64,000 nucleotides of DNA. It comes from Botryllus schlosseri. Its lineage: Eukaryota. The stretch covers positions 14,324,001-14,388,000 of the forward strand of contig CM119372.1 in the NCBI GenBank assembly GCA_051294905.1, written 5' to 3'. This document shows, piece after piece, positions 3,001-57,216 of the stretch. Position 1 is the stretch's first letter, and each line of letters begins with the position of its first letter. Both the position numbers and the translations under genes were made by a program. The notes under the pieces were generated by a model. The model did not search any database and was not told where the DNA came from. It saw nothing but the letters and a program-made list of their open reading frames with translations.

Positions 3001-6000
3001 ACGGTTCATCAATAAACTAGACTTCAAAGTAAACACATTTCCGCATCGGTTTCTACAGTTGTTTTTGGTCACACATAAACATTAGTAAATATATTTTATG
3101 GTCTAAATTCCAAGTAATTTTTCACGGGCCGCTCAGAATCGTTTCGCGGGCCGCACAATGCCCAGGTTTGATTTAAGTTCAATGTACTATTTTTAGATGG
3201 TACAAAAATTCCTTCTATTGGCACATACTTGGTTGACGTATTTTGATAAAAGTTGACTCCAAGGCAAGGCACCGAAATCAAAGTGTGAACTCCTGACGAG
3301 GTGGAATCAGCTATATCGACTGTATTAATGATGCGACACGTTGGAGTTGCTTGGGCGTTTTTATGATCAGTAGTACTTTTGTAAACTGATTAATATATCC
3401 TTTGAGGGGTTGGCAATGTCGGGGCAAACTGAAGGTTTTAAACGAGTTATGATTTTGCAAGATCGTGTACCTTGTGGCATTTGGATAAGATTTCTGAAAG
3501 AATCTTATTTGCTTGTGTCCAACTTCCACACGCGAATTTCAGGTGAGCAAGTTCATACTCGCGGGACAAGTGGCTGCACTCTATCCTTACATGCCTATGG
3601 AAGATGTCCGCTTGGACCCGAGATGTTACGATATGGTTTTGAACGATTTGTTGAAGAAGGATCACAGCGTATGTCCACACCCGGTCGGAGGCTTGTAGAA
3701 ATTAATAAATCGCTTTTGTTCAGACATTTGCCAAGGCTATCAAGGAATGGCCGTCAGACTTGTACAACATTGCGTTTGTCGTAAGTTTGGTTCACGGCAG
3801 GCTGGATAATTACCCGAAAGACACAACGTTGCATGCGTCGCTTGCGAGATTGTAAGTCTCCGACAATCGGTGTGGGTTGAACTTACGCGTAATCTTTGCT
3901 CCATTGCAGGCACGCGTTGGACCATAGATATGACAGGGCCCTGAAAATCTACTTGCAATTGAGGCATCCTGACACGTTTGAACTGATCAGGAAGCATAGT
4001 CTGTATGGTGCCTTGAAGGTTGGTGTTTGGACGAGTTTTAGCTCGTAGAAATGACACGTTGAACTGTTTGTTCTTGTGGCAGGAGAATATTGTTCTTCTA
4101 ATGGAATTCGGACAAGAAGAAGCGGTCAGTTTACTTGTGGAAAATATAGGTCACGTTCCGGTATGTCAACGCATTTATGGTTATTGCTTGTGGTGTCGGT
4201 TGTGAGAGCGTCGATAGATATATTGTTGTGTCTTTGACTTTGTGTGCGGATCTTATTCAGGGATGTTTATATGTTTCAAATGCTTACCCCATAGTTTTTA
4301 TTAGAATAATGGGTATGGGACTAAATGGTAGCGGAATCTGAATAAAATCTGCAAATACTTTCAGACACAAAAATAAACGAAGTGTTTCTTTGTGGTTTAA
4401 TGGTTTAGGCCTGTATATTTTTTATCAAGTTACGTCAGTTCCAGCTAGGTCTTGGTGTCTGTTCAAGTAGTCCATAAAATTGTTGTGTGGTAGGGCTACC
4501 GATTACACTAAAACTCGCTTTCAATATATTGTTGCATAAAATGTGTAAAATCGTAAAAAAAATTGTAGTGTAGTAGGTGTACTGATTGCACTTGAACTTG
4601 CGGCCGCAGCACTATTGCTTGGCATGGGCTCTGATTACTTAGGTATGTTCTAATTTACTGCGGTACTTTGCTGCTCATACGATTTCAAATCACTGTCGGC
4701 ACCTGTGCTTTTACTGTAGTGAAGTGCTGGTGCTATCAGTTGTATCAGACAGACCCAATTACACTCGGCATATTTCTTTCCAGATCGAAATGGTTGTGGC
4801 TGAATTGCAAAAACATCAACAGTATTTATATATGGTAAGTTCTAGTTTTACTGCCAACTCAAGATAGACTATTATGCTTTTGAGCGAATGCTACCCAATT
4901 ACGCTAATTCAATTTCATATGAGTACATTATATCTGTGCTGAAATATTGCTCCAGTGGTTACCAATTACGTTTTTTTGCTCCTCTCGCCCCCTAGTCAAT
5001 CTTGACATATCAACAAATTTCCATACCAGTACTGGAACTTTATCCCTCAAGTGGGGTATGTGGATCTTGTTGATTACATCTACTGATGCAGCAAATTTGT
5101 ATCTTCAAGACAATTTATGCTTGTCGGCACTTTTTTGAATTACCCTGTTTAAGTTTCAATCACTAGCGCAATATCAAGCTTAGTCAATGTTATCTCCATC
5201 ATTCGCAGTACCTTCACGCCCTGTACAAGAAAGACCCACAACTCAGCGGCAACTACCACATGCTGCAAGTGCGATTGTACGCCGAGTTCAATCGATCGGA
5301 ACTCCTGCCGTTCTTCCGGTCCAGGTGACGCGGTCTACTGTATTTTGCTCGGAACCTGCACCAATGCGCTCCATTTTTTTTCTTCTAGCAATCACTACGA
5401 GCTCGAGGAAGCCCTTGATATATGCGAGGAGCGTGAATATATCGACGAAATTGTGTTCTTGTTAGGTAAAACCGGTAGTGAATATGGCTGGTGAAGTTGA
5501 GCATCTGGCTGATTTGATCCTGAATCGAGTAGTAAGCTTCAGGCTTGGTTTTAAAGTCGTGTATTATTATCTCATATGTATTAAGAACGAGTTTCCAAGC
5601 TCATATTTGTACCTTTCACACAATAAGAATGAAGATGATGCTACTAGCACAACCAAAGTCTATATTTTTATAACTCTTAACGATACATATGACTATAGCG
5701 CTGTGTTACAATGTTGTTACACAAAAAAGTCGTTACCAAGAACGTGCGTAACCTATACTATATGATTTCAATGTTGCGATAGTTGAGGTTACAGATCTTC
5801 CACGACGGGAATATATAGCGGCCAAAAGATAATTACTGGTTATAAAATAGTTAACTGTCACAAGAAGTAATCGGTCCTGGAAAAGCCAAACCGATCAAAA
5901 CTATCAAGGCTGTAGTGTCGGTTTACTTTACCATTGACCCCAGAAACTTACAACACACTATGTGAATCAACCCATTTTTTGAATTTGAAAAAAAATCTGC

Positions 6001-9000
6001 TTACAGAAAGTAATTACATTTGTGAATGTCCGTCTACATCAGTGGTTCTTAAACTTCTTTAGACTCGCCCCCCTTGATGAAATTGGAAAATTTAGGATGG
6101 TATGATGCAACTATGACATTTAAAATCGTAGTGCAATTCGCATTATTGTCGTTGTTTAAACTTGAAAGTTTCAGGACGTATTCAACTCATTCTGAGGTCA
6201 AGAAACTTCCTTTCTATCTGATGGCTTCGCGCCCCTTCGAATGCTTTCACACCGCCCAGTTTGAGAAGCACTGCTTTACGTGAAAATCTTGATAATCAGC
6301 TTCCGTAATTACAACGGTACTTTTTGGTAACATTGGGTTCGATTTTGAAGTAGCTGAAGTCGGAGCAATTTAACAAACTCCGACTCCGTCCAGTCCGTGG
6401 TTCGCCAACTCCAACTTAACGAAACTTCGACTCCACAGCCGTGCTTGCTACTCGACTCGAATCGATACAATCAATACTCTACTCGAAAACTCAAATAGTT
6501 GTACCCAACCCTAGCACCGAATTAATGTGGCAATCACGTTGTTCTCTTTCTGCGAAGCCCGGATGGGTAACGCTTCCAGGGCCTTGTACGAGATCATCCG
6601 TCACTACCCTGACGTCGACAAAGCGATTGAATTTTGCAAGGAGCAAAACGACATGTCGCTGTGGAGCGAACTGATCGACAAATCAATCGAGAAGCCTGGT
6701 GGGAAATAAAGGCGAACTTTTTGCCGCTGGAGCGCGACATTATCTTTCTATTTAGAAAACATCAGAGATTTGCTGGAGAACATCGGGACACACGTAGATC
6801 CCGTATTGTTAATTAGACGGATCCCGCCTGGATTGAAAATACCGGGGCTCCGGAACGCATTGGTCAAAATTCTACAGGTAATCCCCACCCAGAGTGGGAT
6901 CCAGACCGAATTTTCTATCTGAACCTTGGGTATGCGAGCTAGTTTTACGGCGTTCACGAAAGGCCGATGTTGGAACTACGACTATAACCTATAAAACTAA
7001 CTGCATTGTCCTTATTTGTAAGATATTGCCTTACTTATGACGCAGGTCCAGTCCATTGTCCATACTTGTCTTATTTTCAGTGCTCACCACAGGTCACAAT
7101 TGAAATACGAATACCAACATTAATAGTTTCACTGCATCGGTAATCAGGCCGTGACAAGGGCTTGGCAAAAGTGATGATCTTTTTCATTTGACCTGGTGGC
7201 ATAGAAGGTTGAAATCTCCTGATCTAAATCGCATTTGGTGATACGATTTTCAGCAGACCACGGTCTTGATTGAGAAGTTTGAACATATCAACAAGGCATT
7301 GTAATTGAACTACATTCTACCAATAGCAAGTTTCCAGTTGATTTATTATTGCTTCTAAATTTGCCTTGATGAGCGATATTCTTAAGACAAGTGCGGCTGA
7401 ATCCTGCTGATGTAGGAAAATTCTGACTCAAAACCATTTCTGCTGTCGTTACTCGTTACGTTATTCGTATAAATCAGTGGTTCTCAAACTTTTAGTTGAC
7501 ATGCCCCCCTGATGATAGTGAAAAATTTCGCTCCCCCTTCATTGTCATATCAAACAATAATAAAAAGAGCAACCAGAATGTTTGCAACGCCAACACATTG
7601 TTTAGTGGCATGGAAGGTGTTACGGCTGTTGAGACGCTTCTAGAATATGGAATTAGGGCTATATACCGAGCAATAATTATGAGATGGAGGAATATCGTGC
7701 GGAGCTTGAAAAAATTTCCAGTCAAGTATTTTGTTAAACATAATCATGTGCAATGGTAGCACGTATCACATGGAAATTTTATTGATTTTGTTGCCTAACC
7801 ACTTCTATTACCCCACTTGAGTTTGTCTCAAATGTACCCGACCATAAGCTAAATCTAAAACTAATGACACAGCTACATGCATTCAACCATTACAATTCAT
7901 TCAGGGACATCTTCCGATTAGTGCAAGGTTCGGTATCAGTCAAATCTAGCATCAGTGTGTGGACGGTAGGACAAAATTGTGAGATTTAAATCGAAATATA
8001 GGCTAAATAGGATTATTGCCATTGTTAAAACTTGGAAGTTTCACCAAGCCCCAACAAGTTTGAGAACCACTGGTATGGATGTGTCACTACTGCTCTCGAT
8101 GGCTATCGTTTGTGCGGAAGCAGTCATACCTGCACCAGAACTATATCCTGTTTCCAAAGTTGCTTATCGTTCGAATTTCAGGATTATTCCATGCAAACTT
8201 CCATGTGGTTTCAATGTAAAAATATTCTCTCGTCGGATGTTATCAGCCTGATTGGAAAGCAGTACAAGGTGCGCTCCAGGCCTGTTTATGTTGACTGTAA
8301 GTGCAATGCTATGATGATTTCCATTACGTATTGACGGTTACAGTTATTGCTTGCAGACGAGTGTATTTGCCATGCTTGCGAGGAGCCGATTATGAGTTCT
8401 CAAGATGCTAACCAAGCCGAGAAGTCAGGCTCGAGTTCTCAAGATGCGAACCAAGCCGAGAAGTCGGTCTCTAGTTCTCAAGATGCGAACCAAGCCAAGA
8501 TGCCAGCCTCGAGTTCTAAAGATGCGAGCCAAGCCAAGAAGTCGGTCTTGAGTTATCAAAATGCGAACCAAAACAAGAAGCGGGCGCTAGCCGGCCTGGA
8601 GATCTCTACATTCATTTGCCGACATACTTTTCATACGGCTTGCCTGCAAAACAAGGTATGCATTTGAACGATAGCTCACACACACTGGCTGTGTTGTGCT
8701 CGAGCCATGACGGTTATCATTGATTGTCAGCGCGGACGTGCGTTTCTTAGATTAGCTAAAAACATTGCACACCAAATTTAGCTCAATTCCAAACTTTAGA
8801 AGTGAAGCTAAATATATTTATTTAAAAAAAATTCGGATGTTACTGGCAACCTCATGAAATTGCTGCCTAAAAAAATGATGCATAGCAAATTTGACTGAAT
8901 CCAACCTGTAGAAGTTATTGGTGTGGAAAATTTCGAATTTTAAAGAATAGTATTTACAGGTGGTCCTATAACACTGGCCTACAAATTTCGAAAAAATTTT

Positions 9001-11383: not shown

Positions 11384-12810
11384 CTTATCATGATAACTTG
11401 AAAGAATTTTTCATCATTAATCTCCACCAGTACTTATCATGATAATTCTTCTTCTCCAGTTTCCATATATTGTCACATTTTATCGGAATCGAGGAAACCT
11501 GTTTTTGAATTGTTTTCTTTTGGTTTATTGCCATGATATTAGGGGATTCTTTTGCATTATCTATTATAGACAACCAGATGAATGGAGACTACTTACTAAC
11601 AGCTCAACATGAAACCTGAAGTGCACGTTACTTTACAATAGAAATAAATATGCATCGGTTCTAGGACAGTCGATCTCTCTCGACATAGGACATTCTGTGA
11701 CCTACGACAAATACCATGTGTTCTATGCTGGAACAGAGCCAGAGATTAGCATTGCTTAATTTCGAAGCTTTTTGTTAGTGTGTTGCATGAATAAACGCCA
11801 GTTCCAAATACAAAAAGCTTTACATTTTGGTGGTTTCTGATATGCAGAAATATTTTACTATGAACTAGAGTCGGTCGAAGTGACCAGCGTTGCTACTCAA
11901 GTAGCACAAGTAACACCTTACATTTCTTCTCAATTACAAGTAGCAGTAGTCATTTCTAAGACATCTTAGTATATTTGATCGCGGGAGGGTGGTCGCATAC
12001 TTTCAACAGTTAGTCGGAGGTGGCTACATACGAAATCGCATGATGTGTCACCGCATATAACGCAAAATGACTATAATGACACCACCAATGGGTAGAATCT
12101 TCGAGAAAATATACTCAGGTATCGTGATTCAGAGGCTATTTTACGCTTTTCTTATGCCAATTTAACTCATAATAGTGGTGCAATATTATCCCTGAACTAC
12201 TTTTTACTTTACAAAAACCAAATTGCAAATGCAATTAGTTCATCCAGAATACAGTTCAGGTAGATGTTGAAGTAGTTGTAAAACATTACCACTTCAATAA
12301 GTAGCCAAAATCTACTTGAGTACCCCGAAAAAGTAGAAATATTCAACATATATATTACGTACCGGCATCTCAAAAACGTGACGTGATGGAGCAAAAATAA
12401 CATCAGATTCGTATTCAGCGCCCCCAAATTAGGTATAATTGACCCAAAGAAGTCCTGGCGCAAATATTGTGTATACCAGTGTAGTTAATAATTCCAGAAT
12501 TTTCCACCGTAAATGCTCTTTTTTCATATCCAAAATTTTGTACTCCTATAACTTTACTTCTGTCTCATGGAATTTTGTCCTATCAGATTAAACATACGGT
12601 ATGCCTTACTGCGGTAAATGTCTTTGCGAACCTATATCCAGTGACTTGGGTCCAAATGATAGTTTACGGTTGCCGGTGAATTCAGAAAGTTCAGACGGAG
12701 GTGAACTATTACTTCACTATGTAATGATCCCAGGTTGCCAAATTATCATTTTTTTAGTAAAATTGGGTGCTGAGTTGTTTGGAGAAAGTGGCGAAGAATA
12801 ACTAATCCGA

Positions 12811-13050
12811 AGCCGAAAATATTCGGGTTCATTTTAATATGAATATACCATTCAATTGTATACTGAAGTTCTGTACCTCCAAGAAGCTCTCTCATTCAAA
12901 GTTTCATGCTGGTGACGTCATATTTTGTGATACGATTGTTGATATACAATGTTCTTTCTTATTCTCTACTAGTTGCTGACGATTACCCCTGACGAGAGTC
13001 AGCCGAAAATATTCGGGTTCATTTCAATATGAATATACTATTCAATTGAA
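12811..13050 (+). repeat. ~190-bp dispersed repeat, here in head-to-tail tandem form, carrying a hammerhead-like core
   Basis: agccgaaaatattcgggttcattt recurs at 12811 and 13001 (period 190). Related copies at about 14823-14905(-), 27850-27985(-), 43100-43500 (three pieces, mixed orientation), 44548-44730, 48758-48937(-), 51975-52300. Confidence 0.85.
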
Positions 13051-14247
13051 TATCTAATCTGTGAATGCGCACATTTCGTGCTGGTATCACAAAGCGCATG
13101 TTACTCGCAAGCATATTCTGTAAATGTATGCAAGCTAACCTGACCTTAGCTCCGACACTAGCCGAGTGACTGTGAAACAATCCGAACCTGACCCTATAAC
13201 TTAACTCCTAAACCTCATCCAAGTGAACTTTACCTTACCCCTAGCCCTAACGGTAACACGAACTAATGTAACTAACTTGAACCCAACATTACCACTAACC
13301 CCATTGGTGTTTCAGTAGCATTGTGCATTTGCTGGGATTCTTACCCGTACCACTTTGCCAATAATTGTCCCTAGTCTGAATTTACTTCCGAACCTACGCC
13401 CAATTTTACTGGTTACCATCTTTCCCCGTGAAAATTCAAATAATTCGATTTCTATTTTCGTTCCGCGTCCCAAAATGGGTTTGAAATGCAGATTTTGATT
13501 ATGTGCATACATGGTATCCTAAATTATATTTGTTGTTTCACAGAAATTTTGTATCGTTTGCCGAGGTCAATGCTCTAAATTGTCTACTACCAGATGAAAG
13601 GGAGTCGGCGTTTGTATTTTAGATTTATTTTCATGTATTTTCGTCATTTTGTACCCTGAAGACAAAGAGTGCAATAGTCATAGTGATCATCTGATAATAA
13701 AAGATGTCATTGAACTTGCGTAGCATCATTCACTAACATATTTTACGAACTTTGTTAGGGATGGTAGCCTACATTCCATGGCTTGTTAGCGAGGCAGTAT
13801 GTAGGACTACCCAAACAGTAAGTACGTTATTATCGCAGACGATGTAGTCTGAGGTAGCGAACGAAAAGTTATGACGTCACCATAAACCCCCAACTTGTCG
13901 CGTGACTAATACACTTCCTTCGCCGAGCGTGTGTCATTATACGGCATGATCATATTCAGCAGCTCTAGTATTTTTATACGCTCAATCGATTACGAAGATT
14001 TGTGCGAGGAGCGGAAGGCGAGATCGATATGATAGGTCGTGGTCCGATAATCCTGGAGGCTGATTACTAGTCATTTAGCAGAAATTGCTTGTATTTCGAC
14101 TTGAATGCGGATGCTCGACGACTGTCGGAAAGCCGGCGGGGTGCTGTTGGGGTCCGCCACATGCCATCTCATTTTGTCGCCTGCTTTTTATATTCTCCGC
14201 TTTACTTTTAATTCAGTGTGCATGCCTCTTCTCTACTTCGGCTAGAC

Positions 14248-14630
14248 CAGTGGTTCCCAACGTTGGCGATATCGCCCCCCAGGGGGCGATTTGGCGGTCT
14301 AGGGGGGCGAAAATGACGAAGGGGGCGATAGGGGGGCGAAAATGGACAAAGGGGGCGACGGGGGGGCGAAAATAGCGTTAAAACGGCTATATTGGAGTCA
14401 AGTCGGAGAAATGACCTTTTTTTTTAGTCATCCCACGAAAATTCAGTTGCAAAAGTGTAAAATTCGACATCGAACGGCAAAGTTGACCTTTTTTTTTTTT
14501 TTTTTTTTTAGTCAACCTGCCGGTGATTACAGTTTGTATACCGATTTTTCGGTTCACAAAATTTGGGGGGCGATGATCTGCGTTGAGCCTGAAAAGGGGG
14601 CGATGAGTCGAAAAAGGTTGGGAACCACTG
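14248..14630. mobile_element. hAT (Charlie-like) MITE (family B, copy 1)
   Basis: TIR CAGTGGTTCCCAAC / GTTGGGAACCACTG; perfect TSD ggctagac; ggggcga subterminal repeats; near-identical to 22885-23249. Confidence 0.92.
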
Positions 14631-15531
14631 GGCTAGACCAAGGTGGATTTCTGGTTTCAAAGACTAGGCCTACTCCAAGTCGTTTCGACACCTTCCTATA
14701 TTTTTATTGTATCGCAGTTTTGTGGTGTTTTGTAATGATGAAAATATTAATAAACTGGGGATGTCCACATTCACGTGGAAATACAAGAAATTTTCCACAG
14801 AATAAATTGAATATAGTCTATAAAAAGCTTCTTGGAGGTACAGAACTTCAATATACAATTGAATAGTATATTGATATTGGAATAAATCCCAATGAATAAT
14901 AGTCAGCCCTCAAAATTATCGGGTACCACAATCTGACATATCGACCTCGCCTACCAACACATGTCGCTTTCATTTTCGTCGATTCCTTATATATTATCCT
15001 CTCCTAAATCAAGTGTGCAGTGCGTATCTGTTATTTACATGCTCTAGGCCAGTGTTTATTTTAACCCTTTTGGTGATGTAGGCCTACCCCTTGAGCTGTC
15101 AAGAAAATTTCCCTCTGTCCAGGATCGAAACATTTCACTTTGTCAGACCGCCCTCAAACGCTGGTACTGGGCCCCCGTAGGGCTTTCGGCAAACTTCTTT
15201 GGATTTCAGAGACGTGTTGTGTTTTTAGGGGCGAAATACTCATTGCTGACGATTTCTTTGGCAATGTAGTTTACTAGGTTGCAGGTGCACCGAAACGTCA
15301 TAGCCTATGTCTTGGAGTGTTCTGGTGCCGTAATATTGGACTCTGATAGTCCCGCACCAGCAGGTTTCACACCCCTGGACTTGGTGGACTAAAGGACCCC
15401 AACGCCCAACGGCCTCAAGTGATCACTCTCTCATAATGGCGAAAAAGTCTTGCAGATATTTTGCCGGAAGTGATGGTACCGAAATTAAAAGCAACAGAGA
15501 GATATATATATGATATTCTTTTCCGCCTGTA

Positions 15532-16907: not shown

Positions 16908-17016
16908 TACCATCGAGATGCTTGACGACGGAGTTGCAATACGGCCGTGAGGTCATCTAGTCGGCGCCCCCGTTTTTTTCTCCTCCATGCTATCCGTGAT
17001 TGCTGAGCGCCTAGCA

Positions 17017-18016
17017 CAGTGGTTCCCAACCTGTGGTACGCGTACCACTAGTGGTACGCGAAGGTCTTCCAGGTGGTACGCGAGTAGATTCTGTTTTTTT
17101 TTTCGACCGAAGGGAGTTATTAGTTAAGGTGGGGTTGAACACAAAGATTGTTCTCCAATAAACTTCAGGCTTAGCATGGCCTCCTCGTACTCGACTCTAG
17201 TTTCTCACTCCCCAGCTGCCTTATAATTTTCCCTTGTACGTGGGATGGCGACGAAGGATTTTCATATCTGATGACCGACTTGTTGCGCCCATGCATGACT
17301 TTCGATGCGCTGTGAGCAAACAAATGCCACGCATCGACCAACTAGTGCAGTGGTTCTCCAACTGGGAGGCGTGAAAGCATTTGGAGGAAGGCGCGAAGCT
17401 GCGGCCAACTGCAATTTTTTTTCGCGCTTCGAGCGATTTACTTCCAATTTATTGTTCCTACTCTGTGTTTAGTCCTAATAGCATATTTGAGAATCCTCTT
17501 ATCAGCTGTCATAATCTTCCATGCCTTCAAATTATTCGTTGGGACAATGATATATATACATCATATGATATATATATATCATTGGTTGGGATTGCTAGCA
17601 TTCTGGTTGCATTTTGTGATATGACGATAAGCGGGGCGAGGAATTTTCCCCTATCATAAACGAAGACGTGTCTAAAAAAGTTTGAGAACCGCTGAGCTAG
17701 TGAAAAATAAGCAAATGCAGCTATCGCAGCATTAAAACAATTGACTTTTTTCGTTTGCTGTTATTTCATTATGTTGTTCTTCTTGCGATTGGTGGTGAAA
17801 AAACAATTCATGCATCCTATTAACGCTGGCTGATAATGCCTAGTTTAATAGTATTTGCTATTACGGCTAGAATAGGTCAAATACGTCATTATGACGTCAT
17901 GAGTGACGAAAACGTTTTTTGACCGCCTGCAGCGCGCGTAACTTATGTAGGTGGTACGCGAGCACTGCATAAAACCTCGAAATGGTTCGGGGGTGAAAAA
18001 AGGTTGGGAACCACTG
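17017..18016. mobile_element. hAT MITE containing a nested MITE
   Basis: TIR CAGTGGTTCCCAACC / GGTTGGGAACCACTG; perfect TSD gcctagca; gtggtacgcg subterminal repeats. Confidence 0.9.
17348..17694. mobile_element. Nested hAT MITE
   Basis: Termini CAGTGGTTCTCCAAC / GTTTGAGAACCGCTG; flanks aactagtg / agctagtg (1 mismatch). Confidence 0.75.
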
Positions 18017-20140
18017 GCCTAGCAGGATAGCTGCGGATACCAATTTCCGAGTCTTCGGTATGACTCGGCCGGGGATTGAGCCTATAGGCCTATACGACCT
18101 ACAGATCGAGAAGCCGGTCGCATAATAACCGTTACACTATCTCGCTCAACAATTCTCATGCAACGAAATCGCGCGAAGAAAATTTTCGAGTTGAAGAAAT
18201 CCGCCCCATAATATTTCACTTCCAATTGATTTTCGAAGTAATTTTGGTACTTATTGAATATGGTATCATTTCACACAGTACCTCGTACCCCCAAGGCAAT
18301 GATATATCATTGCCCCAAGGGTTTCATGGACCCCTGGTTAAGAACAACTGCTCTACGTCAAGGCTGGTGTCTGATTAATTATAGAGTACTAGCAATGATT
18401 TATTTATATATAGATATCATTGTTACTAATTAGTAATCTACAGTCTAATCATAGCAATTTACAGCGTAGCGTAGGCCTCAGTCTGACTGCAAGTCGTTTC
18501 TGCACCCTTCTATCTTTTTCATTATATCGCAATATTGTGGTATTTTTATTTGATGACAATTTTAATGAAATGAAAATGATGATGACTTTTACAGATAAAC
18601 TTGACAGAAAAATATAATGTAGAGAAAAATTAATTCCACCTTGACGTACGATCTTCATCATCATCATTAATTTACTAGCAATTTTTATCAGTTCAATACA
18701 CACCACAAAAACGCGATGCAATGAAAAATTAGGAAGGTGTCGAAGCGACTTGGGCCCTTTTCATACCGGGGTTCCGGGAATAACATTTCCCGAAAATGTT
18801 TACCGGAACCCCTCTATGTGAACATAACACTGGTTTTTCGGGGCGGTATGAACGCGCTTATTTTCGGTGATTTTTACGAAACCGACTGAGTATGAACACG
18901 AATGGCGCAGCTGGGTTCCCGGAACGCTGTCAATCAAACTTTTAGTTACCGTAACGCGCTGTTCATTCAGGCTGCTTGTATTTCGAGGTCAGCTACCTGA
19001 GGCATTTTGATCTTCTTGTGTAATGGTGTTGGGAATGCATTATTCTTGGATTTATATTCTGTATGCTCACAATACGTAGTCACTGACTACTATTCAGCTT
19101 CTTTTTTCTGTGGTTTTGTGAACAGAGCACGGCTAAAAAGGTACAACACCATCTCCAAATGATGCAGCATTGGGTGAGTTGCCTGAAAACTTAAGGACTT
19201 AACACTCATTTGATAGGTGATCTTGACCCTTACCATATGTTGTGCGTAGGTTAGTCACCGTCATATACGCCTACCGAAAAGGGGATTTAGTAACATCTGC
19301 TTTGATAGTTGTCAGCACAGCAGAGAATGATGTCCTTAGCTCTGAATCACTAACCAAAAGTGATTCAAACGGGCTGGTAAACCATCATACATCATCCAAG
19401 CCATAATTTGGTTTTCACCTATGCCTTCATTTTCTTGTTACAACCAAGTAATTCCTTTGTTATGCAAGTGTCACTTACTCTGATCTTTTCGCAGGTCTAG
19501 ATGGAGGATACTGATGAAAAAGGTGGAACTGTGCAAGTGTGCATGAAGTTATAGTTTCTCTCATGAATAAAATGAAACAGCACAAACACATCTGGTTAAG
19601 CAAGAGCATTGTTTATTGAGAAAGTCACACAGGGCATTTCCGACGTCTGGGCCAGCGATACTTGGATCACCACCACGTCTTGTCTTCAATGCGTATACCA
19701 TCCTCTGTATCATTCTGGCCTTAGCGGATTGCAGTTTCTGAGCAAAGCCGAACACCGCGCCTTCAGTCGACCAAAATCTTTCAACCTTCATGTGTGCTTT
19801 GCTAAGTTTCTGAAAAAGCAATTGTGAATTTTAAGGGCAGCAGAAAGGAAATTTATATTACATATTTGAAATTAGCTTTAGCTCCTGCTCTGTTTTTCAG
19901 GGAAAAGGCTTCATGAGCCGGGGCTGAAAGGGATAGGCTGCCTCATCAGTTATGTAGGCTAGTACGGAACCCTATGGCTCCCAATCTGAAAACTTGAATG
20001 CAGCAAATGCATGTTTGGTACAAATGTTGCTGTGGTAATTTTTTATCCCTCCACAACACTCAGACTTGTGCAAAGTACTGGAATTTCAAAATGCGCAACT
20101 TCAACTAGAACTACTCAATTTTTCAAACTAGCAACTAGAA

Positions 20141-21875: not shown

Positions 21876-22884
21876 TATGGAATCTCTGTCCATTTTTTGA
21901 AATAAATCCTGCGTGATGAGAGCTTTTCTATATAGAATAATTAAGGAATTAAACAGAAAATCCTGCGTGACGTTGCCACCAATTCCATTCCGGATTGTGG
22001 CTAGCCCTACTAGGCACCAGCAATTATTTTTATTAAAATCAACTTGTGACAGTTGCCTTCTTAAAATACATCTGATGTTTACCTGGATCTATAAACGATT
22101 GGCTTCATTGGCTAGCCTCCAAAGAGCGACAGCTACTCAGCAATCAAGAGAAATTGAGTTCGTATAATTTGCTGGCTGCTTTTCGTTATGGTCTCGAAGC
22201 TCGTCGCAGAGTATACCAAATGTTTCTTTCACGGATTTCTAGAATTCCTTGGTTTCTCTGTACAGTGTACATAAGATTAGATTTACCCAAACCATTATAC
22301 AAGCAATCACAAAGATAAACTGACTTTGTCGTTCGCAGATGTGATCAGTGGTTCTTTTCATTCCAGGACTTTATCCTCTTTGCTGGCTTTCAGTTTCTGC
22401 TCTCAGCTTCGGTTGATAATATACAAGCCAGGAACATGCTCGGGCTCTATTACTGATACAGGTATATTGAGTATAGAGCCCCATACACATCGAGAAGGCA
22501 TATCCGCAACATCCCATAGCTAAAAGTTGGAGCCAACTTCTCCGCATCTCACGAATATGCCTCTCCCACATCGTTTTCCACAAGCATATTACAACTGGAA
22601 CACCCCACAGACATGGTTTCGTAACTATCAATACTTACGGAGAATCGCGTTCGTACTGGCCATAATTTCCCGCAAATTTACCGAAAAAACGACCTGTGTG
22701 AACATAAGTTTGCGGTAACTCTAAATAGGTATGAACGCGCTCTTTTCCCGGAACTGTTTCGGTAATTTTTTCTCTATGTGAACATCGCCTGTTTCGGAAC
22801 TTGTTCCCGAAAGAGTTTCGTAAATCCGGTATGAAAAGGGCCTTGGAGTAGTCTCTGGAATCAGGCACCTACCTTGGCCTAGGC

Positions 22885-23249
22885 CAGTGGTTCCCAACGA
22901 GGGCGATTTGGCGGTCTAGGGGGCCAAAAATGGCGAAGGGGGCGATAGGGGGGCGAAAATGGACAAAGGGGGCGACGGAGGGCGAAAATAGCGAAAGGGG
23001 CGATAGGGGGGCGATGACGCGTTAAAACGGCTATATTGAAGTCAAGTCGGAGAAATGACCTTTTTTTTAGTCATCCCACGAAAATTCAGTTGCAAAAGTG
23101 TAAAATTCGACATCGAACGGCAAAGTTGACCTTTTTTTTTTTAGTCAACCCGCCGGTGATTACAGTTTGTATATTCAAAATTTGGGGGGCGATGATCGGC
23201 GTTGAGCTTGAAAAGGGGGCGATGAGTCGAAAAAGGTTGGGAACCACTG
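22885..23249. mobile_element. hAT (Charlie-like) MITE (family B, copy 2)
   Basis: TIR CAGTGGTTCCCAAC; perfect TSD gcctaggc; near-identical to 14248-14630. Confidence 0.92.
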
Positions 23250-24405
23250 GCCTAGGCGATGTAAAGAGGACGCATCTTCGTTCCGCAGCTTAATTTACGC
23301 TTAATTGGATAGTTAAAAACTAATTTCTGTTTTTATCAAGTATATTCTGACTATTAAAGATAACTTGGCACTGTTTTCTCAGTTTGGCACTATTTTACGA
23401 AATGTTTGGTACCAAAGACTCCAAGAGCCTTCCCGTAGTTGGCAGCCCTGCTTCAAGCACAATCGAAATATGACGTATTGATACGCATCGCCGATGACGG
23501 TTTGGCAAACAAGAGTATGTCAAGTCAATGAGTGGGCGGTGTTAGCGATTGTTTTCTGGTCCGAGTTTCTTCGATTGCGTCAATTTCATATCTCATGTAT
23601 GCGGTCATCTGTCTATTGTAGATATATCTATGTATATATAGATATATGTCAGTTTTTGAAGTTGAATTATCATGGTGTCGTTGGCTCGCAATTAGAGAAC
23701 CTGTAAGCTGCTTTTCGACTATAGCATATTGTCTATAAATGCCACAAAATCCGCTCAGTCCCACGCGACAAATTCCCATCATGCTTATTTCATTACGAAA
23801 AGGTGCGGTACATTGATTCGAATTTCCATCTTATCTAGTGGTTTCTGTTTTCGTGTAGGTGCCACCCCAACCAGAGTGATAACAGTTGTCGTTTTCAACA
23901 ATGACTTCAGTGTGATGGAAAGATCTATCGCGTGAACGAAAAATTTTATCCTCATGAAATTTTATCCTCGTATGAAATCGACAGGAATTTTTCGCTCTCA
24001 TTCGCATATGTAAGATTTGAGGCCTAAGTACTTATAAAAATCGAACAGTCTGATTTGTGTAAACACTACCGTACCACTAATTCCTTCCACTAGGCTTACG
24101 TCACATATATGCTTATTCACTCTCAGAGTGCCCTATTGGTAGTGCATGAATTCACCGATAGTATGATTTGATATATTCATCCAAGTGATTATTTGTATTG
24201 TGGTCTGAATTGTCTTGGGTCAAGACCGAGACGCCTCGATCCGAGATGTCTGCAGACCCGTGATATTAGGTATTGGTGTACATTCTACATTAAGTACAAT
24301 TAGCCTAAAGATGCTTTTTGACCATAATACGTTTCTTTTAAGCAGAAATTGTTAATATTGTGGACGCCAGTTTGGTTTTGAAGCTATTCTGTTGCAATAT
24401 TTAAA

Positions 24406-25224
24406 ATGCTTATCAAGGAATTCCGAATCATTTTACCTATAAGTGTTAAAGAATATGGCATCGCTCAACTGTGGTCTGTTGCCGAGGCCAGCAAAAATGA
24501 AACTGGTGGCGGTGAGGGCATTGAGGTCATAGAGAATTATTCCTATGATAATGACAAAGGAAAAGGTCAATATACTCTAAAAAAATATCATCTAACCTCG
24601 AGGGTTCCTAGGGCAGCAAAAATGCTTGCTCCGAAAGGCTCACTTACATTTACTGAAGAGGCTTGGAACGCTTATCCCTATTGTAAAACCGTAGTCACGA
24701 ATCCTGATTACATGAAGGGTGGTTTTGAAATTTCGATTGAAAGTTGGTATAAAGAAGACTTTGGGACAGAAGAAAATGTCCACAAACTCACACACGACGA
24801 ATTGAAAAACCGTGAAGTTATTTACATCGACATTGTCAATGATCCTGTGAGTTCAAGAGATTATAAAGAATGTGAGGACCCAACTAAATTCAAGCCATCG
24901 AAGGCGCCACACAGAGGTCCGATGACTCCAAACTGGATCAGCGAATTGAAGAGTGGGAAAAAACCGAACGTTCCCCACATGTGCGCCTATAAGCTCGTGC
25001 GTGCTCATTTCAAATGGTTCGGATTCCAGACTATTGTCGAAGGAATCATTCAAAGCCAGGAGAAAAGAATATTTCGAAATTTTAACAGGCAAGTTTACTG
25101 CTGGATGGATAAGTGGCTGGGTCTTACTATTGAAGACATTCGGAGAATAGAAGAAGAAGCGAAAGAAGAGTTGGAAAAGCTTCGAACAACCGGTGCTATT
25201 CGTGGAACCGGCGGCGATGACTGA
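24406..25224 (+). CDS. PITPNA: Class I phosphatidylinositol transfer protein (PITP alpha/beta-like), intronless CDS, paralog 1
   Basis: 272 aa: [93 protein letters not shown]. The alpha/beta assignment cannot be resolved. Confidence 0.95.
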   Translation: MLIKEFRIILPISVKEYGIAQLWSVAEASKNETGGGEGIEVIENYSYDNDKGKGQYTLKKYHLTSRVPRAAKMLAPKGSLTFTEEAWNAYPYCKTVVTNPDYMKGGFEISIESWYKEDFGTEENVHKLTHDELKNREVIYIDIVNDPVSSRDYKECEDPTKFKPSKAPHRGPMTPNWISELKSGKKPNVPHMCAYKLVRAHFKWFGFQTIVEGIIQSQEKRIFRNFNRQVYCWMDKWLGLTIEDIRRIEEEAKEELEKLRTTGAIRGTGGDD

Positions 25225-27620: not shown

Positions 27621-28974
27621 ATCCTGCTACCAGATACAGAGTAGTAGTGGAGGACTGTCGGCACTCATCGAAGCATTCACGATTTTAAAAGATGCTGCAT
27701 GCCTACATATTTGAATGTCTGGTAAGTCCGGATGAGCTGGTGTTATTAGCTACTGGAATTGATGATTTGAAGGAAAATGTTGACTGAATTAAAGTTGTTC
27801 GGGTAGCAGCAATAAGTGACAATACTGATTCACGTTCACTATTATAAAATTATAAAGTATATTCTTATTCATATTGAAATGAACGTGAAATTTTTTGGCC
27901 GACTCTCAGTAAGGGTGATAGTCATCAACTAGTAGAGAATTGGAAAGAACACTGCATATCAACAATCGTATCGCAATTATTAGGTGTACTGAAACGTGTT
28001 ATATCTTGTTCTTGAAATTTTGTGATTTTTTTCTGAATTATTCTTGGTCAAAGCTCAGATCTTGCTTGATACGGTATTATACTGCCCCTTCCTCTTTCCA
28101 AAGTGTCTAGAGAGGTCTCTCTCTGTGGTTCGATTTGTGTTGACTGTCAGATCAAAACCAGTGCCAGTCCTATGACATGGTAGACAGGCAGGGTGGCAGC
28201 AGGAATAGCATCCGCCGTTACAGACTCATCCAAATAACTATGCTCGGCAATGATACGCTGTGGCAAACCCATATACGTTTGTGCTTTTTGTAAAGTGCAT
28301 CCTGTAAACCGGATTTTATTGTATTGTAACTTATCAGCAATGATGCTCAAATTGTGGTGTCCCAATGTAAAATTAAATTTGGCCTAAATGAATTTATTCT
28401 GGAATGATTAGATTGCTGCTACAAGATAAATTTTCATCTACTATTTTCCCCCTGAAGTTGGATTTGCTAGAGCAGTACTTTTCAATCTTTTGACAACCAT
28501 TCTGACTTATATTTTAGCAATAATTTCATCCGCACAAAGAGAGTTAACACGTTTTTTTAGAATGGTCAACAAGTAGGCTACCGGTTTATCAATGACTCAG
28601 TTACTGCTGAATATTTCTGACGATTTAAGACCAGTTAAGTGCAACTTATTTCTCTTATTCTCTTATTTCCCGCAGTAGGCTTGTACATGTCTCATTAAGA
28701 AAACACCTCTATTCTTCGCTTTTACGTCAACTAGAACACTAAAGCCCTTTTCAGCCAAATAAGTTGTGAAATTTTGCACTAGAAATTCAAGTACTCTGAT
28801 GGTCAGTGCGTTGGAACCAGACTTTTGATAACGTAATAATAAGTGTTTGTGTTCGCAAATATTGATTCGCTACGTCTAGTGCGAGACAAAATCAAAGTAA
28901 AAGCTACGATTAGCGGTGCGCTGTCCAACAAGTTTTTACAAATCCGTTGAAATGACTGAAGTTAGGGTGTCACT

Positions 28975-29173: not shown

Positions 29174-29696
29174 GTGTCACTGTGCCTAATATTCAATAAA
29201 GTGTATTTGAATTATCCCACATCAGAAAAAGGAAAAATATGCCCAATTTCATTCGCACCACATTTGTCATCCACATTGCAAATTTTGGGTGCTCTTGTTG
29301 AAAAGGACTGTGCTACAGTAATCGTATTCCGGTGCTCTGTTTCGCACTTTGCAGCTATTTTATATCTTGAAATTGATCAATGTAGTCGAGTGGTTTGTGA
29401 AATCTGACCTCTTGCATTGCAAGCTCTTCATCGGAATTGTTTTATAATAATGACTGTTGATGGTGATACTGTACATGAGGCTACTCTCTTGTTGAGTTGT
29501 TGTCATATTATCATGGTGCCACATTTGGATATATTATACGTGTGTTTGAAAATGGTACGACTCTGGTATCGGTTATCATAACACAACCACACCGTTTTTG
29601 TTATCATACCATTTTATTGCTTTTGTATATTATTATCAGTTCAATCTTTTATTGCCAACAGAAGCAAGTTAGGGTAGGCTTAATTTCACATGCAGC

Positions 29697-30518
29697 ATGT
29701 TGATCAAAGAGTTCAGAATCATCCTGCCCATGACTGTCGAAGAGTACCAAGTTGCTCAACTTTACTCGGTCGCTGAAGCCAGCAAAAATGAAACTGGCGG
29801 TGGCGAAGGGATTGAAGTGATTGAAAACAAGCCATATGAAGATAACGGCGTAAAAGGACAGTACACACTGAAAAAATACCATTTAGCTTCAAGGGTTCCA
29901 AAAGCTTTGAAGCTTATCGCACCGAAAGGGTCGTTAGAGTTTCAAGAAGAGGCGCACAACGCGTATCCGTACTGTAAAACCGTAGTTACTAACGACTATA
30001 TGAAGAAAAATTTTCTAATCTCCATCGAGAGTTGGCACAAGCCCGACTTCGGCGATACGGAAAACGTCCACAATCTACCCGCAGACGTGTGGGCGCAAAC
30101 AGAAGTTATCTATATCGATATAGCCAAAGATTCTGTCAGCTCTGGCGACTATAAAGCTGACGAAGATCCGCTCACATTTCACCCAAAAGCCGATGGCCGC
30201 GGACCATTGACCCCAAACTGGGTCGAAGAATTGAAAAAGGCCGACAAAAACGGCACCGCGAAAATGCCGCATATGTGCGCTTACAAACTCGTCAGGTGCG
30301 AATTCAAAAAGTTTGGATTTCAAGGCATGGTGGAGGGCTTTATACAGAGACAGGAGAGAAGAATCTTCCAGAATTTCCACCGGCAGGTCTACAGCTGGAT
30401 GGACAGGTGGCATGGGCTCACGATGGAGGATATTCGTAGGATCGAGGACCAGACTAAGGAGGAATTGGCCGAACAAATAAGGAAAGGCTCCATAAGAGGC
30501 ACCAAAGTAAATGAATAA
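29697..30518 (+). CDS. PITPNA: Class I phosphatidylinositol transfer protein, intronless CDS, paralog 2
   Basis: 273 aa: [97 protein letters not shown]. The alpha/beta assignment cannot be resolved. Confidence 0.95.
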
Positions 30519-34800: not shown

Positions 34801-37800
34801 CACATTTTTGTTGAAATTCAGCATTTATTCTGACGAATTGTGATCTGTCATCAGTTTTTTTGAAACTAAAAGTAACACACTGGCAATACCGAATATTGGG
34901 CCCATAATACAAATATATTCACAACACAGTCCTTTTAAAATCGGTTCAAAACATCATAATGAAACACCCACATTTAACGGCTTATTGAAAATGCATTTTT
35001 GTGTCAAATTTTTTCATCAGTTTACGAGACTTAATTTTTTGGCCATTGAGAGGCCATCTCGTCTTTGAAATCCCGAAACTTGTGCTGATGCTTCTGTTAC
35101 GAGCTTTACATGTCGTTCCACTGTTTGATTGTGGCATGGATGAAACAAAATCAGAGGCTTCTCGCGGCATTCTTCCAACTCTGCATCAGTTAAGTGCTCA
35201 ATCGTTGGAGGAAGTTGTTGATAAGGTTCAATATCAACCAACTCGTGGTATGCCTTGGCTTTGGGACACAGAATAAACGAATAGGACCCAAGTTCAATTG
35301 GTTGGAACTGCTATGACTTTCAATGTCCACAAGTGAATTTTATTCAGCGGCATGTTTTCGAAACGCAAGCACCTTGGTCACACCCTTATTTCGTATGTCT
35401 TCATTATCATCTACCAGCATTGCAATCATAATATTTTTGGGGTGTGCGGAATAACCGTTTCTTATCACCACATTCAAAGCAATTTTCCGAACGTTTCGGT
35501 CAGAGAAATTCAAAACCTGTTGAATCAAGTTGAAGATGTTTCTGGGTCCATGTGTTATATGTTTGTTTCCCTTGATCTCAAACCAAGTTGGAAAATATAC
35601 TTCAAGGCAAAAACGAACCAGAATCTCTAGGTTCAAAGGCGGTTCATCAACTGTTACATAATACCGTAAAACTCTGCACTGCATCCTAAAGTTAGCCATC
35701 TTGAATGCGCAACTGGTGGTCCAACCTCCCAAGTAAGCCGGATCATCATCAGCATTTCCTTGAATAATTGCCCAGCACATTTATAAGCATATAACTGGTC
35801 CTTAAGTCACTAACAATTTCCGATGGGAGCTTTGGAAAGGCCATAAGTGGTGGCGAGAGCTTTTTGAATTGAGTAACTGGCCAACAAGATACACTTCCAC
35901 GTAGTTTTTTTCCAATTGGGTGTGACCAAGGTGCTGGCGATTCGAAAACATGCCGCTGAATAAAATTCACTTCTGGACATTGAGAGTCATAGCAGTTCCA
36001 ACCAATCGAACTGCGGTCCTGTTCGTTCATTCTGTGTCCCAAGTTGAACTTGGAAGCAAAGGCATACCACGAGTTGGTTGATATTGAACCTTATATCACC
36101 AACTTCCTCCAGCAATTGAGCACTTAACTGATGCAGATTTGGAAGAATGCCGCGAGAAGCCTCTGATTTTGTTTCATCCATGCCACAATCAAACAGTGGA
36201 ATGACATGTAAAGCTCGTAACAGAAGCATCAGCACAAGTTTCGGGATTTCAAAGACGAGATGGCCTCATTCGCCGAAAAATTAAGTCTCGTAAACTGATG
36301 AAAAAACTTGACAAAAGAATGCATTTTCAATAAGTCGTTAAATGTGAGTGTTTCATTATGATGTTTTGAACCGATTTTAAAAGGACTGTGTTGTGAATAT
36401 ATTTGTAATATGGGCCCAATATTCGGTATTGTCAGTGTGTTACTTTTCTTAAAAAAAAACTAATGACCGATCACAATTCGTCTGAATAAATGCTGAATTT
36501 CAACAAAAATGTGCGTATATATTGTTTTTTGGCTATAACTCATTTTGTGTTCACAATAGAGAAAACTTTCTTCTTAAGACAAATAGAAACATGATGCTTC
36601 CGCAGATTTTGAGCTATATATCATGACTCTACGACCAGCGGTTGCCGAGATGGGCCATTTTACCCCCCCCCCACGCGCAGAAATTGGGGGGTTGCCGGCT
36701 GTAAAATGGGGGCAACACCCTGAAGTCACTTTTTATTGAAGTTTTAGGTCATTTGTCAGGATTGAGGAAGCCTTTTTTTGATTTGAAAAAAGAAGTCATT
36801 TTCACTCCACCCTATTGCGGGTCACGCTCACAGCATAGAGTCACTAAATATTCACAAACAGAAAGCTAGATATTTCGAACAAACTTTTGTACCAAAGAAG
36901 GTAAAATTTTTGAGATTGTAAAGCTGCATGCTCGTTTAGTGTTGATTTTTTATGCTGCCAGCGCCATGCATAGAGTGGCCCGCAGTTGAAATGCAATAAA
37001 TTTCAACCAAATATGTTATAATGACGTGGAATTATAATATATGAAAAAGGTTCACAGTGCAGAACCTACCAAGGTTCGTTTGTGAACGTGAACCTCTAAA
37101 TTTCCGAGGTTCACACACAGAACGCGAACGTGAACCTCACGTTCACACCATCCCTACTTACAAGGGTTGGTCTATTGCAAAAGGATTATAATTGTAATTT
37201 CAACTTGGTGTGTGTTGATTTTTCTTCAAGTTAGGTTTGGTCATGTCATATTTTTCTGCAGTATCACAACGCGCTCACACCAATATCAGAAAAAGCTTCT
37301 CCGACATCATCGATCGGTTCCAAAGGTCATCTACAAGATAACGTACGGACTATGCCTCAAGCTTTGCACAATCAATACACGCCTTATGGAAGTGATGAGC
37401 GATCCTGGTAAGCATTATTTTGCAATGTCCGTACTAGATGAGGTCACGCGTTCTTGATGAGATTGAGTTCATAATACTCACTTGTGATGGGATGTACACA
37501 TCGTGTGAGGTTTCATATTACGTGATCGCTAATAGCATCGCGGCAAATCAGGTTTTGATAAATATTGTGAAATTGGATTGGCCTTCTCAACAAGGGCGTT
37601 CGTTCATGTAATTTGAAATAATATGGGACTAGTCCTATCTAGTGCAATCGCCAATCCGGCTCTGTTTGTATTTTGAATATATGTGCACTCCGGGTTACTG
37701 GATTCGGAACGCTGGTTTTTACTTGTGTTTTAGTGCAGTTATTGAAACAAAAATTAAAAAATAGAGATAATATTTGAATAGCACCAGGCTACAAATCTGT

Positions 37801-55578: not shown

Positions 55579-57216
55579 ACTAAGGGAGAAAATTAGTTCA
55601 GCTGCCATTTATGTACAATTGTACATGTCTTTATAATTACATTCACGTACAATTGTTTTACAAATCATGTTTGCTGAATCATGGCTGTGTGTGTCTTTTT
55701 TATAATGTGGATATATTTTGATAATCACTTCTGGCACTTTATATGGTACTGTTCTGACAATAAAAAATTTACAGTTACTATTTGTGTCGAATGGGTATTA
55801 CTTTGATGATGTAGTCAATTAACGTTGCTATGTATACACGGTTACAATGTAGGAATCTCCTGTGCTAGCATTTCGTCTCGAATGACTGCGCTTAAAAACA
55901 CTCCCCACTCCCCAGCTTTCATCAACTTCATAGGCAGTCTAGTTTTTGGTCATTTAATAGAAAGACATGGATAGTGGCATATATATATATATAGAGAGAA
56001 ACATTTTTTGCAATCAGGCAGTCCATTTTAGTTGTGATCCAGCAACCGAAGTTCTCGAGCGACGTCAATTAGCGGATAGTTTTCATCAGTTGTCTCATCT
56101 TCATGCATAACTTTAATTGCTGCCGATTTCATATATTGCAAAAGCCAGCACGGTCGACATCTGATAACTCCTGGCAGCCAGTCAGTGAACAGCAGGTCTG
56201 CTATTTGAAAGTCTACGCATTTCTAGCCTTGTTTTAAGTTTCGTTGACATTTCAGCGACATCGTCTTTGCTAGAAATCAGTTGATCATTCATCTTTTCAA
56301 GTTGATTTCTTCCTGCATGAATGGCAGTCAAGTTCTTCAATAATTCTCGAACCTGCAATATCACCATTTATTAATGCAGGAAAACAGCTGGCGATAAGCA
56401 GAACAAGGCGACAATCTATAGAGCTTATGGCAGGGTTATTATTACCTTCCGGTAGCAAGCTTCCACATCCCTCGATTGTTCATCGGATTCAGTAACAGAC
56501 GTAACAACTGTAAAATCAATCATTGTTCGAATGCAACGGGTAAAATATTCCACTAAATCTTGTGTAAAGGGTCAAATCAATTTTGCTAGCAATAGATACA
56601 GTGATGCGGCAATTTTTGTCTCTGCATGGAACTAGCAACTACTGATTGTCTTGGTTGGTTGGTGTCTAATAATCTAGCGTATAATTTTGTTGGCACATTT
56701 GGTAAAGAATTTCGCTGGCCAGATGCGAGAGTAGCAATTAGAGCAAGTATAGCATCATACATTCAGGATGCACATCATACAGCACGTAATCATATTAATG
56801 GCAGAGCCATACTCAGGATCATCATTGAAGGCAAGATCATGCTATTTCGGTTAAGTGGCTAAATAAACATGATGAAGAATACAAATCCACCACAACAGTT
56901 TTTACTATTATTGATCATCTAAGTACCCGTAAAACGCACAGCATTATTATCAAAACAGTGTCATACTCGCACTGCTGACTTCACCTATTCGTAACACAAC
57001 AGAGACTGATAGAGCTATATACGTTGACAGGTTGACTGAGGTTAATTGTCCATGCCCGGTTTCTGGCCCTGGTTCGTTAACTTCGTTTTCATTTTTATCA
57101 GATAAGATAAACAGAATAGAAGGTGTCGAAATGAATTGGAGTAGTCTTTCAATCAGACACACACATTGACCTACTGGAACATGTAAACCCAGTATCCTGG
57201 CGGGAATAACTGAATA

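Follow-up and report, generated by a model that had tools for sequence, protein, structure and literature searches.

A high-copy Botryllus schlosseri repeat with a hammerhead-like motif and a one-pair helix II, most likely a terminal segment of a Penelope-like element

The DNA considered here is a window of 64,000 nt from Botryllus schlosseri (contig CM119372.1), and it holds 13 fragments of one short repeat at 7 sites. An earlier note on this DNA had counted 8-10 relatives; the relatives exist, and the count is replaced by these figures. The focal site, read on the plus strand, begins with the left copy of a 12-bp target-site duplication (12796-12807), which is identical at 11 of 12 positions to the right copy found by direct-repeat search at 13048-13059. 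Between them lie copy A (12808-12890), which is 5′-truncated, starts in loop II of the motif described below, ends in a 3′ tail of about 30 nt and is 96% identical to the family majority, and copy B (12891-13047), the focal copy, which comparison with the majority shows to be close to it and which ends without a tail. This arrangement, a truncated tailed copy followed by a tail-less one, is a partial tandem and not the 190-nt head-to-tail unit that had been proposed: the two copies share about 52 nt and contain a single complete core, and the 190-nt period is a feature of the focal site. Copy A carries GAAA-ATAT-TC and the 3′ strand of helix I, without CUGANGA, and TRF reported no tandem array at the locus. 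Inside the repeat there is also a palindrome, TGACGTCA, at 12913-12920, which we take to be a putative CRE-like element, along with two further TGACG half-sites (12977 and 12990), and a degenerate CCCTAA-like tract occupies 13135-13305, about 80-250 nt downstream of the focal insertion.

The remaining copies differ in length, orientation and state of preservation. Copy C (14817-14893, minus strand) is a 3′ fragment with a tail, whose outer boundary is approximate; copy D (27849-27984, minus) and copy E (43075-43234, plus) have decayed cores and no tail, and E meets copy F tail-to-tail. Copies F (minus, no tail) and G (plus, tailed) form a head-to-head pair at 43235-43516, bracketed by 8/8 repeats at 43235-43242 and 43509-43516, and copies H (minus, no tail) and I (plus, tailed) form a second one at 44475-44738, with 8/8 repeats at 44475-44482 and 44731-44738. 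Copy J (48752-48940, minus) is the longest single copy; it is tailed and has private changes at G12 and in the palindrome. Finally, a compound site at 51975-52300 contains copy K on the minus strand and then K2 and L on the plus strand as a partial tandem, with no clean duplication at its borders. The F/G insertion (43228-43242) is placed where copy E ends on its 3′ side, close to the tail boundary of the family itself, and may represent insertion into an existing copy. Copy J is adjoined by a second high-copy repeat (48952-49048), which matches 3177-3266.

Other features of the window include a Vps41-like RING-finger exon at 8335-8664, under the Pfam cut-off, and uninterrupted phosphatidylinositol transfer protein ORFs at 24382-25224 and 29673-30518, about 5 kb apart on one strand; the best named match of an intronless gene of this kind in the window is from Styela clava (68%). 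A MITE family with matching short terminal inverted repeats is present at 14236-14642, 17011-18022 and 22877-23257, and two of its copies contain internal repeats of 29-30 nt. A long inverted-repeat element at 34856-36459 has internal ORF remnants (35343-35780) without a Pfam match, and large fold-back elements occur at 61270-62889 and 57215-58560, the latter with tandem arrays of 64 and 143 nt.

The focal copy contains a type I hammerhead-like motif at 12985-13018 on the plus strand, recognised from its sequence, from comparison with the majority and by a descriptor scan. The letters, helix I and core boxes had been read correctly in the earlier note, and comprise the helix I strands ACCC (12985-12988) and GGGT (13015-13018), the catalytic box CUGACGA (12989-12995), a single helix II pair, G12996-C13004 (G10.1-C11.1), the loop II strand GTCAGC (12998-13003), the box GAAA (13005-13008), ATAT (13009-13012) and TC (13013-13014), all on the same strand; from the position of the motif, the cut is predicted after C13014. 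The CUGANGA and GAAA boxes and the UH site are found in the focal copy and in the family majority alike. On paper, helix I has four Watson-Crick pairs, within the 3-7 bp of the rule for minimal hammerheads (min-HHRs), and knot-free folding predicts a low occupancy for it. Helix III is written GAAA-A-UA-U-UC, with positions 15.2-16.2 and loop 3 palindromic, so the ATAT palindrome described before stands, and its 1-bp helix is preferably taken as 2 bp capped by a UA loop. Likewise, the 1-2 bp previously assigned to helix II reduce to one pair in the focal copy and the majority, the 2-bp gg/cc version being a private change in the copy at 43,4xx, where GAAA in register is missing as well. Core mutations in other copies, mentioned in the same note, are indeed the rule: of the 13 window fragments, only the focal copy has both boxes intact.

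To view the family beyond the window, two DNA contig sets (X2 and X9) and two raw RNA runs (X23 and X21; same species label) were aligned to copy J, chosen as the reference because it is the longest single copy, at a threshold of at least 80% likeness. The matching contigs number 24,105 of 3,944,314 in X2 and 24,259 of 3,825,060 in X9, and these figures of about 24,000 per run, which are contig counts and not copy numbers, agree with the proposal of a high-copy family. Where copy J has its private changes, G12 is present in the majority (about 90% of depth in X2 and 85% in X9), as is the palindrome (about 98% and 96%), and among the positions listed no other core or helix I position varies at 10% or more. 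The family majority retains CUGACGA, GAAA, the AAUAUU palindrome, UC and helix I; thus, the consensus check suggested in the earlier note returned a family that keeps its core boxes and its helix I pairing, and not a consensus without the core. The focal copy matches this majority at 96-97% identity, and its sole difference within the motif is at 12997, a position that varies freely among the window copies (A, T, G, C). In the contig alignment to copy J, the core does not visibly stand out from its flanks in conservation, which is what a single master copied neutrally would leave.

A relaxed type I descriptor (core boxes, G10.1-C11.1, palindromic insert, UH, and helix I of at least 3 pairs), applied to both strands of the window, has the focal site as its single match. 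The same descriptor found 55 matches in a 4.82 Gb order-2 Markov simulation, or about 1 per 90 Mb, of which 5 had a helix I of at least 4 Watson-Crick pairs and 1 combined such a helix with an upstream complement of at least 5 to loop II, and these rates flatter the motif somewhat because the descriptor was composed after the motif had been seen. Next to the known abundance of hammerheads in Penelope-like elements (PLEs) of animal genomes, a chance origin of the motif is unlikely. An Rfam scan of the whole window with E up to 10 gave 10 weak matches, none to a hammerhead, and those to miRNA families at 43125-43340 reflect the E/F palindrome; scans of metagenome contigs and viral contigs with the motif pattern gave no match.

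The anatomy of the insertions gives a second view of the family. The 5′ ends are spread over majority positions 1-113, and the 3′ ends fall into two groups, 142-165 (7 of 13, mean 155) and 182-189 (6 of 13, mean 187), about 32 nt apart. In both clean head-to-head pairs (F/G and H/I) the tail is on one arm only. The flanks are AT-rich and the 3′ edge is sharp in the contig alignment to copy J. Contrary to the initial impression that target-site duplications are lacking, the focal insertion is flanked by a direct repeat matching at 11 of 12 positions and two others by 8/8 repeats, so that duplications of 8-12 bp are found at three of the seven sites, all of them compound insertions, and no clean duplication at the other four. 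Among 1000 random pairs drawn under a tight null, 11 have at least 8 matches and 1 has at least 11, and among 300 under a wide null, 40 score at least 8 and 7 at least 10; both 8-bp duplications are AT-rich, and one overlaps the element end by 3 nt. The parallel statement that there are no terminal inverted repeats (TIRs) is borne out, as the palindromes of this repeat are whole-copy inversions at varying points. The combination of TIRs and a fixed-length duplication that marks a MITE is not what the copies display, their duplications being 8 and 12 bp. The palindrome at 43,099-43,364 was considered as a MITE and rejected, being two copies joined at a non-terminal point. In the genomic contigs, the best 15 of 280 joints consist of 7 inversions at differing positions, 7 go-backs of 53-163 nt and 1 skip, each seen in at most 3 contigs per run, and the go-backs in at most 2.

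PLEs are described as having 5′ truncations, partial tandems, adjacent inverted copies and a one-sided tail of 30-40 bp (Craig et al. 2021, PMC8557442), and in the account of the Anolis element Poseidon the tail is connected with two internal sites of priming, both downstream of the hammerhead (PMC11167929). The variable 5′ ends, two 3′ classes, one-sided tails and inverted joints of the repeat match the traits given in PMC8557442. Insertion anatomy, along with the hammerhead boxes retained in the majority, supports a Penelope-derived origin. Of the two origins that had been offered together, retrozyme or Penelope-derived, it is the latter that is supported, and the half concerned with tandem monomers and circles is not, no array with two intact cores being present in the window.

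Regarding the parent element, a Pfam search of 147 ORFs, mostly near copies (the window has about 375 ORFs of at least 55 aa), found no match to a reverse transcriptase (RT) or a GIY-YIG domain, so the Penelope ORFs that the earlier note would have looked for beside the copies did not appear among them. Protein searches for a parent PLE gave no RT or GIY-YIG linked to the repeat; they returned an unnamed 168-aa record, which appears to be a further copy of the repeat with a few additional upstream codons. Since most copies end within about 170-190 nt, the main template was probably a short non-autonomous master. Summed contig depth falls about 20-fold in X2 and 9-fold in X9 between 48904-48915 and 48928-48939, and 150 X2 contigs share a further extension at 48938, with an agreement of 0.6. 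We infer a link between the repeat and a PLE parent element. The majority also has, at 13029, a candidate ATG with about 20 open codons after it, a very short frame that fits the PLE layout.

How could a motif with a single helix II pair fold? The hexamer GCTGAC at 12975-12980 (plus strand) is complementary, as GCUGAC, to the GUCAGC of loop II (12998-13003), and would be the 5′ strand of a 6-bp pseudoknot. This predicted knot leaves one bridging nucleotide, 12997, and a loop of this kind, with one bridging nucleotide and a 6-bp knot, has a workable geometry. The knot duplex is valued at -8.1 kcal/mol versus -4.7 for the decoy that traps the core. The same hexamer repeats, in direct orientation, the beginning of the catalytic box, and for this reason the knot complementarity is not independent of the decoy hairpin. 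Nearest-neighbour folding, which ignores core contacts and knots, makes the nested hammerhead less favourable by about 16 kcal/mol than two decoy hairpins, namely CUGAC/GUCAG, which had been anticipated as a competitor and is confirmed, and a second one in the motif region, CCGAA/UUCGG, which on paper outcompetes helix I even with the knot. A helix III formed in trans, between two RNAs, is worth only about -0.2 kcal/mol. Covariation in the helices did not exceed that of shuffles (193 of 500 as high) in 12 window rows, which are mostly decayed copies of one master.

In the descriptor of Cervera and De la Pena (2014, PMC4209133) a min-HHR has a helix II of at least 3 bp, and in the alignment of its supplement every motif compared has at least 3 pairs; with its 1 bp, the motif lies outside this definition. 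However, Perreault et al. (2011, PMC3088659) report knot-dependent cleavage at more than 1.2 per minute for a type II hammerhead of metagenomic origin whose stem II is a single pair and whose knot has 6 bp. In the experiments described in PMC11167929, PLE insertion in vitro is independent of ribozyme cleavage and the PLE ribozyme needed protein, and 8 of 9 predicted Xenopus retrozyme dimers in a recent preprint did not cleave (10.64898/2026.07.22.740005). We consider it rather doubtful that the majority motif would cleave measurably in vitro; any cleavage would probably be weak and dispensable for the spread of the repeat.

Taking these elements together, we favour, with good confidence, the reading in which the repeat is a PLE terminal (pLTR) segment whose one-pair-helix-II motif is predicted to need the knot and a partner in order to cut, and the PLE-type origin on its own earns as much confidence or slightly more. 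The copies would have been spread by the reverse transcriptase and endonuclease of a Penelope-like element, the Penelope-type protein nicking AT-rich DNA and copying RNA that carries the repeat segment. Priming of the cDNA at either of two internal RNA sites downstream of the motif would give tail-less or tailed ends, and the PLE priming model could also yield inversions, partial tandems and duplications of variable length. We take the motif as probably the element's hammerhead, either rebuilt around the knot or decayed. If rebuilt, the upstream GCUGAC would pair with the GUCAGC of loop II and stack on G10.1-C11.1, the knot would free the catalytic CUGAC from its decoy hairpin, and helix III might form between two RNAs via AAUAUU, so that cutting, if any, would need the upstream pseudoknot plus a partner RNA or protein.

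The strongest competitor accepts the Penelope origin and takes the hammerhead as dead: the master would have lost helix II by deletion or mutation and been amplified anyway, the knot being an accident of a short duplication. We give this possibility somewhat less than an even chance, and its standing overlaps that of the preferred reading because the PLE origin is common to both, the two differing only on function. Besides the in vitro insertion by PLEs in which cleavage is dispensable and the inactive Xenopus dimers, both cited above, the covariation that stays within the shuffles of the 12 window rows and the strong decoy hairpins speak for it. Against it, the majority has kept every core letter, helix I and the palindrome, and a fold with 1 pair, 1 bridging nucleotide and a 6-bp knot is workable in its geometry, the bridging nucleotide varying freely in the window copies. 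The fully functional alternative, in which a one-pair helix II is rebuilt by the 6-bp knot, the strand that duplicates the box acts as a decoy-release switch and the motif cuts only in dimers or on protein, is put forward tentatively and is less probable than a dead motif. Within the literature covered, this design, a one-pair helix II with a 6-bp knot, has so far been shown only for the metagenomic ribozyme (PMC3088659).

Much less probable is that the repeat is a non-autonomous rolling-circle element (Helentron-associated, of the HINE/DINE-1 type) or another DNA repeat, with a resemblance to a hammerhead that arose by chance. An inverted pair that matches at 10 of 12 positions has its members about 105 nt apart, the 3′ one being about 32 nt from the end; together with a small terminal hairpin at the 3′ side, it may be set beside the subTIRs of HINEs (12-15 bp). 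AT-rich flanks and a sharp 3′ edge also suit an element of this type, the motif region folds as two tidy hairpins, and 1.5e-3 matches per window mean that some are expected in a very large scan. HINEs, however, are described as making no target duplication and as having a 5′ subTIR 2-4 nt from the end (PMC4067079), whereas the repeat has duplications of 8-12 bp at 3 of 7 sites and the 5′ arm of its inverted pair lies about 20-40 nt inside. Moreover, the one-sided tails of the head-to-head pairs would be left unexplained, and in the simulation the strict motif is rare by chance.

The weakest candidate is a true non-LTR retrozyme, a tandem monomer of about 190 nt that would be self-cleaved from multimers, circularised and reinserted from circles. 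Its size and low GC fit the 150-450 bp of animal retrozymes (PMC7229834), the focal site is a partial tandem, one joint among the best 15 of 280 runs from tail to head with 23 letters between, and the head and tail of the repeat share a short similar stretch. Yet nowhere in the window do two successive units both have a complete hammerhead, as the working definition of the preprint 10.64898/2026.07.22.740005 would require; at the focal site a dimer of intact cores is missing since the upstream copy A lacks the first box. The copy ends do not lie at the predicted cut, and the go-backs among the best 15 of 280 joints are rare and mixed (53-163 nt). In X23, of which about 6% was covered, 3,274 of 12.9 million RNA reads fall on the repeat, and in X21, with about 3% covered, 11,854 of 22.2 million do; respectively 98% and 67% of these reads continue into unlike sequence, with strands about even in X23 and about 3:1 in X21, a pattern that fits a passenger in host transcripts. 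The circle junction reads sought for the earlier proposal did not appear, as no RNA read covers any of these 15 of 280 joints, and among those listed from the DNA and the two RNA runs there is no shared monomer junction, circle junction or pile-up of cleavage starts or ends, which leaves a circular retrozyme unsupported. The RNA says little about circles, because the libraries may be poly(A)-selected and would lose them, and little about cleavage, because a validated PLE ribozyme left no such reads either (PMC11167929). All told, a retrozyme in this strict sense is very improbable.

Hammerheads in PLEs and short PLE-derived repeats are already known, so the family itself is ordinary, and it is the one-pair helix II with a possible knot that is unusual. 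In the literature covered, none of the PLE hammerheads combines a one-pair stem II with an upstream knot; the catalogue of Lunse et al., reportedly the largest of PLE hammerhead variants, may contain one that does. If the knotted reading is true, such motifs evade both Rfam and the min-HHR descriptor, and a hidden class of PLE ribozymes, at very high copy, could exist in tunicate genomes. If the motif cleaves, surveys that require at least 3 pairs undercount animal ribozymes, and the repeat would offer a compact model for a hammerhead that is conformationally gated and assisted by a dimer partner or a protein. Should it fail to cleave, the family would show, in vivo and in nature, a PLE-type repeat that has reached very high copy with a dead ribozyme, an outcome that bears on the open question of the purpose of PLE hammerheads.

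The repeat can be compared with several known systems. With animal non-LTR retrozymes it shares a short, non-coding nature, a type I motif, a likely dependence on PLEs and target duplications of more than 4 bp (PMC7229834; 10.64898/2026.07.22.740005), and it differs from them in that multi-core arrays in the window, a canonical helix II and evidence of circles are lacking; in the 2026 preprint these retrozymes are themselves argued to be non-autonomous PLE derivatives (10.64898/2026.07.22.740005). With endonuclease-bearing PLEs, as portrayed in PMC8557442 and PMC11167929, it has in common the 5′ truncation, partial tandem, adjacent inverted copy, one-end tail of 30-40 nt, AT-rich targets and ends shortly downstream of the hammerhead, whereas the RT and GIY-YIG of those elements were not found in the scans and most copies are shorter than 190 nt. 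The min-HHRs of metazoan PLE pLTRs, especially those of the Drosophila virilis type described in PMC4209133, have the same CUGANGA and GAAA boxes, the same G10.1-C11.1 pair, the same N-palindrome-N-UH helix III with a 2-nt loop and short helix I, as well as an AT-rich 3′ flank and mostly solo or inverted dispersed copies. In contrast to those motifs, whose helix II is given as 3-8 bp, the repeat has a helix II of 1 bp, lacks the extra nucleotide before G10.1 and may form a 6-bp upstream knot, and no parent ORF was found for it in the 147 window ORFs or by protein searches. The metagenomic hammerhead of PMC3088659 is the closest in this respect, with its one-pair stem II and a 6-bp knot that links the regions of stems I and II; it is an active type II ribozyme, whereas the animal repeat described here carries a type I motif with a minimal palindromic helix III and a knot that is predicted.
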